A stretch of 47,670 nt of DNA from a virus (lineage: Duplodnaviria > Heunggongvirae > Uroviricota > Caudoviricetes). Shown here one piece after another: positions 9,001-12,000 of the stretch; within the stretch, counting starts at the first letter, position 1, and the number at the start of each line of letters is the position of its first letter. The stretch lies in the IMG/VR virus record IMGVR_UViG_2718218130_000001; one strand, written 5' to 3'. A program made the position numbers.

Positions 9001-12000
9001 TTCTCGATCGCTGTCTTGCAGCTGCAATTCGCGCCATCCCCAAAACCACTCAAGTTCTGGTCTCAACGGTTAGGTTGAGAGTTCGTCGATGTTAAAGAGC
9101 CTGCCAATCTGTTCCTTGTGGCGTCTCAGCGTCCTGCTGATGGAAATGATAGTCACATATTGTGATTTAATGGTCAATCACAAAATGTGTAAAATAAAGG
9201 TGTGACACGTTATGTGTATGATTTTTTTGTGTAAATAGTTTTACCCGCGATGGTTTTGCTTACTTAAGTCGGTGGCAACAGCAGGATGGGTGCTGAAAAG
9301 TTCGAAAAACGAGCGAATGGGGTGGTGGCGAGATGGCGGGATATGGGAGTTGTATTAAGAATTATAGTAATTTAATCAATAGTTTGGACCGGCGGGCAGG
9401 TGCTGTCCTGATAGTGATCGGCGGGCAATAAAAAACCCGGCTCGGTGGCCGGATTTGCTAAATTACTGACCTTTCTTAAGGTACAAGTTTATTAGGAAAA
9501 ATATAGTTGGCATAGCAAGCGAGGCCAAGAGAACCCCGAGCATCCATACTTTTACATCTGCTATCTTGGTTTCCAAAGCGGAAAATTTAGCTTCAAAGTA
9601 GTCAACCGATGGTTTCTTAGATAATGAAGCATCAAAATCCAGGCTCTTCTGTAAAAGTACAGCGGTGTCTCTTTTGGCGTCAGTAGAATCAGAAGATATT
9701 TTCCGGGTATCCTCTTTAATTCCTGCCATGCTGCTCTTGATGTGCGCAACTTCAGCTTCAAGAACTGCTAATCGCTTATCCATGTCGTCGCCTCCATCAT
9801 CACTTGTTGTTTGAATGATCTCAGTATCATCCATCACAACCGATGTGACAATCCGTTTTTCTTTATCTGAAGCAGCAACAGAACAAGCTTTCATCAAGAG
9901 CGTTGCTTGGCTTGATGCTACAGAAGAAAATTCCAGCCCTACTGTAGAGCCATTCTTATCAGAGTAAGCAATTACTAGCTTTCCCTCATCCAAAGATGAT
10001 TGAGCTGCATTCATCAGCTTTTATTCCTCGAACATGCTTTTCAAGGACTGATAGAAATCGAAGGCCTTCTGTTTACTTAAAGTCACGGACGCAACCTTAG
10101 TGCGCTGCATTCCTGCCACTGCGATTTCGCCATTCATATGGCCGATGACAGGGGTGCTATTGAGAAAAACGAAGTTAAAAACTTCGTAGCCATTGTTATC
10201 CGTTCCGATGGTTACAACCCCATCAGCATTAGTTTCAATATAATTTTTGGACTCCAGCACATCATTGATATGTGCTAAGGAAACTTCTTGTTTATCGCTC
10301 ATTTATGTTCTCCTGAACCAACAAAATAGGTAAAAATCTTTTCAATTTCATTAGATTAATTTGCATAAAAAGAACAGGGAAAAGTTGGATTACCAGCTAT
10401 GCGCCGACCAGAACACCTTGCCGATCAGCCAAACGTCTCTTCAGGCCACTGCGCCTTAACTACCTTGCCTATGATGCGGCAGCTATGGTCGCAATCCAGG
10501 GTTCTATATGCCGGGTTTAAAGGTACCAGGTAACTAACCCCTGCATCCTTCTCATACTTCTTGAACGTTGCCTCTGAATCACCATTTGCAGAAGCCACGC
10601 AGAAATCCCCAGACTCTACCGGCTCAGCCGGATCAACGAGTATCAGCATGCCTTCCGGAAAACTTGGACGAACCCCCTGAGGCGCCGTCATTGAATGCCC
10701 CTTCACCTCAAGCCAGAAAGCTTTTTCGCTGGCTTTTGTGGTCGTTGGGACCCATGCCTTTGCATCGCTGGCTGTGTAGCTTCCCACCTCCGAAAATGGC
10801 CCGGCCTGCACTGAAGAAAATAACGGGTATTCATATTGGCGAAATACGGCGTCTGAATCCTCGCCAAACATTATTTTTGCCGGAGATACGCCGAGTGCCG
10901 CCCCAAGAACCAGCGCGTCATCCGCGCTAACCTTTCTTGTTCCTAACTCGTAGTTCCCCAGGCGTGAAGGCGCAGCCCAGCCGCAAAGCTTGGCCAATTG
11001 AGCCTGGCTAAGTCCTTTAGCTTCTCTAAGGGACTTGATCCTTTCCCCGATAATTTCATGCATCGTTTTCATCCCTTAAATGTAACACGCAACGTGATTG
11101 AACTCTGTACACGAATTGAGGTTGACTGTTAATCACAAATTGTGTGTAATGGGTGTGTGATTAATGCTAGGGAGACCGCAATGAACAAAATTGCCCAGCA
11201 GCGAAAAAAAATCGGAGTTTCGCAAGCTGTACTAGCTTCGGCAATTGGTTGGGGGCAATCCCGCATCGCCAACTATGAGCTGAATATCCGTACTCCTGGC
11301 CTTAACGATTGCCGAATGATCGTAGAAGGCCTCAGGAAGTTAGGGTGCCAATGTTCTTTGGATGATGTTTTCCCTCCATCCAGTAACAAAGCCGCCTAAG
11401 CAGTACCCGCTCTTTCATCATGGCCTTTCACCTCTAACCGGGTGAGCAAACATCAGCGGCAAATCCATTGGGTGTGCCGCTATAACTCAATATCAATATA
11501 GGAAAATTAACAAATGGCACAAGCAAGCTACAGCAAGCCAACACAGCGAGAAATTGATCGCGCTGAAACTGATTTACTCATCAACCTGTCAACGCTTACC
11601 CAGCGCGGTCTGGCAAAGATGATTGGCTGTCATGAATCGAAGATAAGCAGAACGGACTGGCGGTTTATTGCTTCGGTCTTGTGTGCTTTCGGAATGGCAT
11701 CAGACATCAGTCCGATTAGCAGGGCTTTTAAGTATGCATTGGATGGAATCACAAAGAAAAAATCCCCGGTGGCCGCCGGGGACTCTAAGCAAATTGATAT
11801 GCAATTCTGAGGGAATTACTGGATCAATCCACAGGATTCATTATGACAAATACAGCAAAAATACTCAACTTCGGCAGAGGTAACTTTGCCGAACAGGAGC
11901 GTAATGTGGCAGATCTCGATGATGGTTACGCCAGACTATCAAATATGCTGATTGAGGCTTATTCAGGCGCAGATCTGACCAAGCGACAGTTTAAAGTGCT

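Follow-up and report, generated by a model that had tools for sequence, protein, structure and literature searches.

We analysed a 47,670-nucleotide stretch of DNA from a virus of the class Caudoviricetes (IMG/VR record IMGVR_UViG_2718218130_000001; hereafter, the window), in whose immunity region a cassette of two uncharacterised genes lies between the cI repressor gene and the OL operators, the position occupied in lambda by rexA and rexB. Positions 9300-10450 match Enterobacteria phage VT1-Sakai and prophage Sp15 of Escherichia coli O157:H7 Sakai at 100% identity, as they do EDL933 and many further O157:H7 genomes; by this identity, the element that hosts the cassette is the Shiga-toxin-1 (Stx1) prophage of E. 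coli O157:H7. The cI gene (10425..11072, minus strand), which encodes helix-turn-helix (HTH) and S24 peptidase domains (Pfam: PF01381 and PF00717) and is annotated as cI in both VT1-Sakai and Sakai, would be the first gene of an operon that continues, on the same strand, through an AT-rich spacer of 122 bp (10303..10424; GC content 0.361) into the small gene (10021..10302; 93 amino acids, aa) and, 6 nt further on, the large gene (9463..10014; 183 aa). The unit is closed by an intrinsic terminator (9433-9456, minus strand), found by a terminator scan and annotated in both VT1-Sakai and the lambda-immunity phage HK544, and the left edge of the slot is formed by the OL operators and pL (about 9149-9219, minus strand), whose position was transferred from the VT1-Sakai annotation (locus positions 3350-3420, plus 5799), where the sequence is identical. 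Shine-Dalgarno (SD) sequences precede both genes (AGGAGAA, 5 nt 5' of the small ATG, and GAGGAA, 8 nt 5' of the large ATG), and the GC content of the cassette (0.415) is below that of cI (0.525), N (0.502) and the window (0.517). An earlier note on this DNA had described such a pair of co-oriented open reading frames (ORFs) in the rexAB slot, AT-richer than its flanks and with ribosome-binding sites and a terminator of its own, and all of these features are present, the two ORFs exactly as described. Both products are labelled 'hypothetical' in RefSeq and GenBank, and the database entry for the HK544 immunity region lists the genes as 'conserved hypothetical'.

Both ORFs are real genes that are expressed in the lysogen. 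The small product, ECs2991 (10 kDa), is found in a proteome list obtained with isobaric tags for relative and absolute quantitation (iTRAQ) from rumen-fluid cultures of strain 86-24 (PMC3936929), which has an identical region, and the large protein was recorded in an O157 proteome with an APEXi of 858, in the >280 kDa detergent-micelle fraction (PMC3210124), a behaviour consistent with a membrane protein. With both products thus seen by mass spectrometry in O157:H7 cultures, the lysogen expression that the earlier note had expected is confirmed at the protein level. Purifying selection acts on all three modules of the pair. In pairwise comparisons with unsaturated dS, the ratio of non-synonymous to synonymous substitution rates (dN/dS) lies at 0.08-0.10 in the small gene; in the large gene it is 0.12-0.25 over the N-terminal part and 0.05-0.09 over the C-terminal part. 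Across all unsaturated comparisons, the values span 0.05-0.33. Homologues of the large protein form about 21 clusters at 90% identity, and a profile search for the small protein returned 65 clusters, none of them with a Pfam domain and every named source among them a member of the Enterobacterales.

Neither protein has a significant match in Pfam, NCBIfam or PADLOC. A hidden Markov model scan of PADLOC-DB v2.0.0 gave no hit at E <= 1 for either, the Pfam and NCBIfam scans returned no toxin-antitoxin family for either, and a profile search against the sequences in the PDB yielded no hit for the small family and coiled-coil noise only for the large one. The statement that the pair matches neither Rex, Stk nor any other known family stands in all of these searches, and no characterised family, of defence or otherwise, emerged from the profile searches with the two proteins. 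Full-length matches were found to PHROG 12602 for the large protein (E = 6.8e-124) and to PHROG 12039 for the small one (E = 6.7e-65), and the C-terminal 120 aa of the large protein also match phrog_3556; since none of the three has a functional annotation, with 12602 and 12039 labelled 'unknown function', membership supplies a name and no function. By these searches the family is absent from Pfam, NCBIfam, PADLOC and the PDB, and is covered by function-unknown PHROGs only. The literature searched contained no functional study of either gene, and one lead, tail-assembly inhibition (Tai), was rejected, as HK544 only serves there as a phage for challenge and tai (orf63) belongs to phi80 and not to the cassette. 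An Rfam search of positions 8000-12000 found nothing.

The putative transcription unit and its slot

The order repressor, small gene, large gene, all in one orientation, recurs in 11 of 11 independent contexts and with at least seven repressor types. Among these are the Sp15 cI, the lambda cI (in HK544), S24-type proteins (212-240 aa) from Pantoea, Enterobacter, Serratia and metagenomic contigs, and RacR-like ones (139-155 aa), which occur in Citrobacter and in a Rac-like prophage that is very common in E. coli. At most loci, L010, L004, L007 and L022 among them, the large gene is followed by the hairpin CCCGGCCACCGAGCCGGGTTTTTT or a close variant; the terminator of the cassette itself is named the pRM-transcript terminator in VT1-Sakai and Timm in HK544. 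The spacer 5' of the small gene, on the other hand, ranges from 57 to 379 nt among homologous loci, is unconserved and lacks a good promoter, and in the 122-bp gap of the window no sigma-70 match reaches 9/12. The suggestion that this gap might hold a promoter of the cassette's own therefore found no support, while its AT-richness did. Together, the conserved synteny, the conserved terminator and the lack of a conserved promoter favour transcription from the repressor promoter, and co-transcription of cI, small and large genes from pRM/pRE, as in lambda cI-rexA-rexB, appears more likely, and is more economical, than transcription from a separate promoter.

The slot is shared with phages of other immunities and holds different cargo in different phages. 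HK544 carries a cassette that is 99.4% identical to that of Sp15; the segment at 10390-10450, comprising the last 26 nt of cI and about 35 nt downstream, is 98% identical to lambda; and the flank from OL to the terminator (9300-9456) is common to mEpX1 and PDP110P1. Both the 3' end of cI and the terminator flank recur in lambda and other phages and, to judge from sequence, act as recombination joints that bracket exchangeable cargo. An example of such an exchange is found in mEpX1 (JQ182727; L025), which has the same cI/cro type (Sp15-type immunity) and the same OL-proximal flank as Sp15 and carries in the slot (2662-4070) another two-gene cargo, a 159-aa DUF6932 protein and a 310-aa protein, that matches the PADLOC candidate system PDC-M63A/B. 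A related pair also takes the place of other cargo in the P22-like Salmonella phage UPF_BP1 (KX776161; L016). There, 3' of mnt (3587-4324), where P22 has its orf59a-terminator-sieA segment, lie genes for a 94-aa protein, distantly a member of the small family, and for one of 149 aa with the C-terminal module of the large protein; the small gene overlaps the 3' end of mnt by 23 nt. The interval between the repressor and N is a common site for morons, such as rexAB of lambda and bstA of BTP1 (PMC7067206), and the placement of the pair in a known moron and defence hotspot lends circumstantial support to a role in defence.

Modules of the large protein and its predicted internal start

The AlphaFold2 (AF2) model of the large protein has a mean predicted local distance difference test score (pLDDT) of 65 and, together with hydropathy, divides the chain into four parts. 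The N-terminal domain (aa 1-48; 9871..10014, minus strand, as are all parts of the gene) is predicted to form a β-hairpin (strands at 10-18 and 24-33) followed by a helix (34-48), with a pLDDT of 72-76, and is variable, with three or more sequence types among the homologues. It is followed by an acidic linker (aa 49-77; 9784..9870) with 9 D/E against 3 K/R, predicted to be disordered (pLDDT <50 at 59-75) and terminating in an invariant DGGD(D/N) motif, of which G74, G75 and D76 are themselves invariant. The most conserved part is a coiled-coil region (aa 78-132; 9619..9783; RLAVLEAEVAHIK), modelled as one continuous helix, with 12 hydrophobic a/d positions in its heptad register and with R81, L85, E86, V89, I92 and K93 invariant. 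The chain ends in a predicted transmembrane (TM) anchor at about aa 157-179 (9478..9546) and a KKGQ tail; the anchor is seen both as a helix in the model and in the Kyte-Doolittle profile, whose 19-residue maximum (2.15) lies at residues 157-175, with 4-8 residues remaining after the segment. The build proposed in the earlier note (a globular N-terminal domain, an acidic linker, a coiled coil and one C-terminal TM helix) is thus reproduced by both predictions. Hydropathy and the AF2 model show no N-terminal hydrophobic segment or signal peptide and only the one hydrophobic segment, so that the protein combines the lack of a signal peptide with one TM segment in its last ~30 residues and a short tail, as is the case in the tail-anchored class. 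[quoted passage not shown] Pfam and PDB-sequence profile searches found no nuclease, catalytic or other enzymatic domain in it. The AF2 model of the small protein is of low confidence (pLDDT 46.5), and a paralogous relation between it and the large protein's N-terminal domain was rejected (hhalign probability 0.4%).

The large gene is a mosaic. Across nine loci, the identity of the small protein correlates with that of the N-terminal domain (Spearman 0.87) and neither with that of the coiled-coil/TM part (0.05) nor with that of the repressor (-0.08), the pairwise values not being independent and the associated p-values therefore indicative only. Sp15 and L018, for instance, share 35% identity in the small protein and 23% in the N-terminal domain, with 94% in the C-terminal unit of coiled coil and anchor (hereafter, the C-module), while Sp15 and L010 share 83%, 85% and 47%, respectively. 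The breakpoint falls at the invariant motif DGGD(D/N)M(D/E)KRLAVLEAEVAHIK. As the small protein co-varies with the N-terminal domain, we read the two as one functional unit, most simply a complex, and the coiled coil and anchor as a second, interchangeable one.

The C-module extends far beyond this pair. A profile search of 1.84 billion representatives (E<1e-3) returned a family of 584 proteins, most of which match the C-terminal unit only and are 90-150 aa long. In a survey of 43 IMG/VR loci (L027-L069; e.g., L033 3455-4297 and L055 3550-4294), the C-module gene nearly always has a tightly coupled, co-oriented partner on its 5' side, frequently with overlaps of 1, 4 or 8 nt. The partners fall into at least four mutually unrelated types, among them β-rich proteins (15 loci; about 140-155 aa), proteins with two CxxC pairs (14 loci; about 112-137 aa), the small family of the Sp15 cassette, and singletons; no partner matches Pfam, and nothing in deposited phage genomes matches type 0. 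The N-terminal extension of the C-module protein sorts with the type of partner, the motif DNV(I/V)PF..GD(I/F)P, for example, accompanying CxxC partners, and three types of TM tail shuffle freely across the family. Of 21 distinct cases, 16 have a gene with repressor-type Pfam domains 5' of the pair (HTH_3, in eight of them also with S24 and in six with Phage_CI_repr, or Mnt), the remainder lying among tail genes. A minority of pairs, as in L017 (Salmonella phage S107, 3550-4294), L060, L066 and L069, is not repressor-linked and is found among Rha/KilA-N genes or adjoining tape-measure and tail genes, a neighbourhood that is another classical moron site. With species-level sampling, the family maps mainly to Enterobacterales, including Photorhabdus, Xenorhabdus, Pectobacterium and Pantoea, and, in a few hits, to Pseudomonas and to proteobacterial metagenome-assembled genomes. 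On the evidence of these profile matches, the pair belongs to a wider, undescribed and mainly enterobacterial family of repressor-linked gene pairs.

The boundary between the two units coincides with a conserved internal start signal. Met78, the first residue of the C-terminal unit and invariant in the alignment of homologues, is the sole in-frame start codon of the large gene with an SD sequence: GGAGG (9791..9795, minus strand), contributed by the codons of Gly74 and Gly75 (GGA GGC), lies 7 nt 5' of its codon (9781-9783). GGAGG is found 4-10 nt upstream of this codon in 28 of 34 distinct family genes, in 27 of them at exactly 7 nt, as compared with 11.5 of 34 expected when Gly codons are resampled synonymously at the frequencies of neighbouring ORFs (GGA = 20%), and none of 20,000 simulations reaches 28. 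When clusters with <60% C-module identity are counted, 12 of 14 have GGAGG at 7 nt (binomial P about 2e-7) and all 14 have an SD-like element before the codon. In members without the methionine, the codon is GTG (L062, L063) or TTG (L068), with the SD sequence still at 7 nt, and several protein records (P0057, P0062, P0066, P0069 and P0193) begin exactly at the internal Met. The conserved GGAGG-N7-ATG predicts initiation at Met78 and a second product of 106 aa, from Met78 to the stop codon (9463..9783, minus strand), that would comprise the coiled coil and anchor only; the need for such a start would also account for an invariant Gly-Gly-x-x-Met in an otherwise disordered linker.

Many calls of the large gene in E. 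coli Rac-like prophages (L012-L015; P0193-P0196, P0016, P0060) lack the N-terminal domain or the TM anchor. A 96-aa call without the N-terminal domain, which begins at the internal Met, is present on 280 contigs, and anchor-less calls of 119 and 150 aa as well as frameshifted ones also occur. These shortened calls could stem from gene decay, from an annotation that takes the internal start, or from selection against the intact protein.

Beyond the cassette, the window contains N (8678-8980) and, adjoining it on the opposite strand and about 800 bp away from the cassette, sieB (8080-8661, plus strand; PF14163, E = 1e-25; PHROG 1301). With a PF14163 sieB next to N, the immunity region already holds one known abortive-infection gene beside the uncharacterised pair. 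The window follows VT1-Sakai base for base up to position 13380, save for a one-base mismatch to the VT1-Sakai record at position 5913, inside exo/bet, the rest of the 7.5 kb compared being identical, and diverges from position 13381 with an insertion sequence (IS) element that begins TGAACCGCCCCGGGTTTCCTGGAGAG. This element (13381-14313 and beyond), which we take to be IS629-like, carries a 296-aa transposase ORF (13423-14313, minus strand) and cuts P, a replication gene of 233 codons, at about codon 201, which makes this copy of the prophage probably replication-defective and different from the Sakai copy.

Candidate functions of the pair

We consider the cassette a good candidate for a new exclusion system, and give about an even chance to its being a Rex-like module of two genes that travel as repressor-operon cargo, are expressed in the lysogen and exclude other phages. 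If so, a single transcript would run from pRM/pRE through cI and the small and large genes to Timm, following the logic of lambda cI-rexA-rexB. The large protein would be fixed in the inner membrane by its C-terminal helix and lie mostly in the cytoplasm, where the coiled coil, probably as a higher-order oligomer, would bundle the anchors and the variable N-terminal domain would dock the cognate small soluble protein. The small protein and N-terminal domain would form an exchangeable specificity, or sensor, unit and the coiled coil and TM helix an exchangeable, widely shared effector unit. From the internal ribosome-binding site at Met78, a second isoform of 106 aa, lacking the N-terminal domain, would be made and co-assemble with the full-length protein, setting or restraining its activity and the stoichiometry of sensor to effector, much as Esc does for SieB and the RexA:RexB ratio for Rex. 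Upon superinfection, the sensor unit, at the membrane's cytoplasmic face, would recognise a phage product, and the effector would then either compromise the membrane, leading to abortive infection, or block genome entry. As a generic coiled-coil/TM module that is shuffled among many sensors resembles a common effector, we favour membrane permeabilisation and abortive infection.

Several points weigh against this proposal. The cassette is a candidate by position and sequence, and the literature searched assigns it no function; its proteins resemble none of the known or candidate defence proteins in PADLOC and carry no enzymatic domain, and the repressor-linked slot also holds non-defence morons in other phages. 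The topology is putative, and the KK after the TM helix would be unusual in a tail that crosses the membrane. Binding between the small protein and the N-terminal domain is read from their co-variation, and tight linkage without interaction could yield the same pattern, because breakpoints cluster at the conserved motif. Likewise, the internal SD sequence could be the fossil of an ancestral gene start or reflect a requirement for Gly-Gly in the protein, but the fact that it persists across lineages whose synonymous divergence is saturated argues that it is used today.

An alternative outcome, which we consider unlikely, is superinfection exclusion at genome entry rather than abortive infection, whereby a complex of N-terminal domain and small protein beneath the inner membrane would bind ejection or tape-measure proteins, or a host entry channel, blocking the delivery of DNA while the cell survives, akin to P22 SieA or HK97 gp15 in outcome and to SNIPE in spatial logic. 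The related pair at the sieA position of UPF_BP1 and the C-module pairs that adjoin tape-measure or tail genes (L055, L060, L066 and L069) speak for it, as does the precedent of SieA, which acts on ejection proteins at the inner membrane (PMC10883804), and of SNIPE, a membrane-anchored cytoplasmic protein that intercepts injection via contacts with the tape measure (PMC13190303). However, the large protein is unrelated to SieA by sequence (hhalign probability 0.6%), has one C-terminal TM helix and almost no periplasmic exposure where SieA is polytopic, and carries no nuclease or other catalytic domain, and the sharing and shuffling of one coiled-coil/TM module among variable sensors would be expected of a generic effector more than of a lock-type blocker.

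We regard as similarly improbable that the pair serves not defence at all but lysogenic conversion or prophage maintenance, for example as a modulator of membrane stress or physiology, as an addiction pair of the toxin-antitoxin kind, or as a modulator of induction or lysis timing. Repressor-operon and moron slots do hold non-defence cargo (PMC7067206), the combination of a small soluble and a membrane protein recalls antitoxin/membrane-toxin pairs, ECs2991 was detected in rumen-fluid culture, and the truncated or N-domain-less copies that are common in E. coli (96-aa to 133-aa) could reflect a cost of the intact gene. Against this, Pfam and NCBIfam reveal no homology to toxin-antitoxin, stress or regulatory families, the slot alternates with known or candidate exclusion genes, and a putative specificity unit that is rapidly exchanged, next to a conserved effector and under many repressor types, is more typical of conflict systems. 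It is highly improbable that the ORFs are filler without a function of their own, decaying or hitch-hiking between the conserved joints, as their AT-richness, their hypothetical annotations and the partly defective state of the prophage (with an IS629-like element in gene P) might suggest. This reading is effectively refuted by the dN/dS values of all three modules and the proteomic detection of the products, in addition to the maintenance of the pair across genera and repressor types and the conservation of its translational signals, including the internal SD sequence.

If the cassette is indeed an exclusion module, it would represent a new family of repressor-operon cargo with a soluble and a membrane component, in which a tail-anchored coiled-coil effector would be unusual and control by two isoforms is predicted; the conserved internal start would offer a compact means of keeping a dangerous membrane effector in check. 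Exclusion by the pair would affect which phages, therapeutic ones or other Stx phages, infect O157:H7, and the 99.4% identical cassette of HK544, which infects K-12, makes the hypothesis directly testable. More tentatively, and with considerable doubt, ECs2991/ECs2992 may be the founding example of a widespread modular superfamily of Enterobacterales immune modules in repressor operons, with a shared tail-anchored coiled-coil effector that one gene yields as two isoforms by way of the conserved internal ribosome-binding site. The long form would dock an exchangeable sensor, the short form would be effector only, and their ratio would gate a membrane lesion that aborts infection by competing phages; this would add a new effector type and a new regulatory principle to prophage-encoded defence, in the Stx1 prophage of O157:H7.

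Comparison with known systems

In overall build, the large protein resembles the chromosomal ElaB, YqjD and YgaM proteins (DUF883), in which a helical region in the cytoplasm likewise leads into a lone C-terminal anchor and a very short tail; these, however, have no sequence match to it, are stationary-phase, ribosome-associated proteins without a partner gene, and are not phage cargo. The mycobacteriophage pairs Sbash gp30/gp31 and Butters gp30/gp31 are likewise prophage-expressed and repressor-adjacent, and combine a cytoplasmic sensor with a membrane partner, but belong to another phylum, show no sequence relation to the cassette and have multi-pass membrane partners.

P22 SieA is an inner-membrane exclusion protein expressed from the prophage (PMC10883804), and it is at the orf59a-sieA position 3' of mnt that the related pair is found in UPF_BP1. 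Homology of the large protein to SieA types A-C was ruled out, in view of the hhalign probability given above and its single TM helix; SieA, in contrast, is polytopic, is encoded by a single gene and blocks the function of ejection proteins.

SieB of P22 and lambda is a lysogen-expressed, membrane-associated abortive-infection protein. Ranade and Poteete (in 1993) reportedly found that an in-frame internal start in its gene gives the shorter Esc, which restrains full-length SieB, and in the S105/S107 holin pair an in-frame short isoform controls a membrane-active phage protein; the internal SD-ATG of the cassette predicts analogous isoforms. The cassette proteins differ in that they lack PF14163, which only the neighbouring gene at 8080-8661 matches, and SieB is the product of a single gene outside the repressor operon, with N-terminal or central TM segments.

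The closest parallel in organisation is RexA-RexB, from which the pair differs in sequence, with no similarity found through Pfam, NCBIfam or PADLOC, in membrane topology, RexB being polytopic with four TM segments and the putative effector of the cassette having one C-terminal anchor and a coiled coil, and in the order of gene sizes, as the soluble protein of the cassette has only 93 aa and part of the sensor would be fused to the membrane protein. Both systems occupy the slot between cI and OL, co-oriented with cI and closed by Timm, would be transcribed in the lysogen together with the repressor, and pair one soluble with one membrane component. They may also share control through stoichiometry, for where lambda pLit gives extra RexB, the internal start of the cassette would give an isoform consisting of the effector only.

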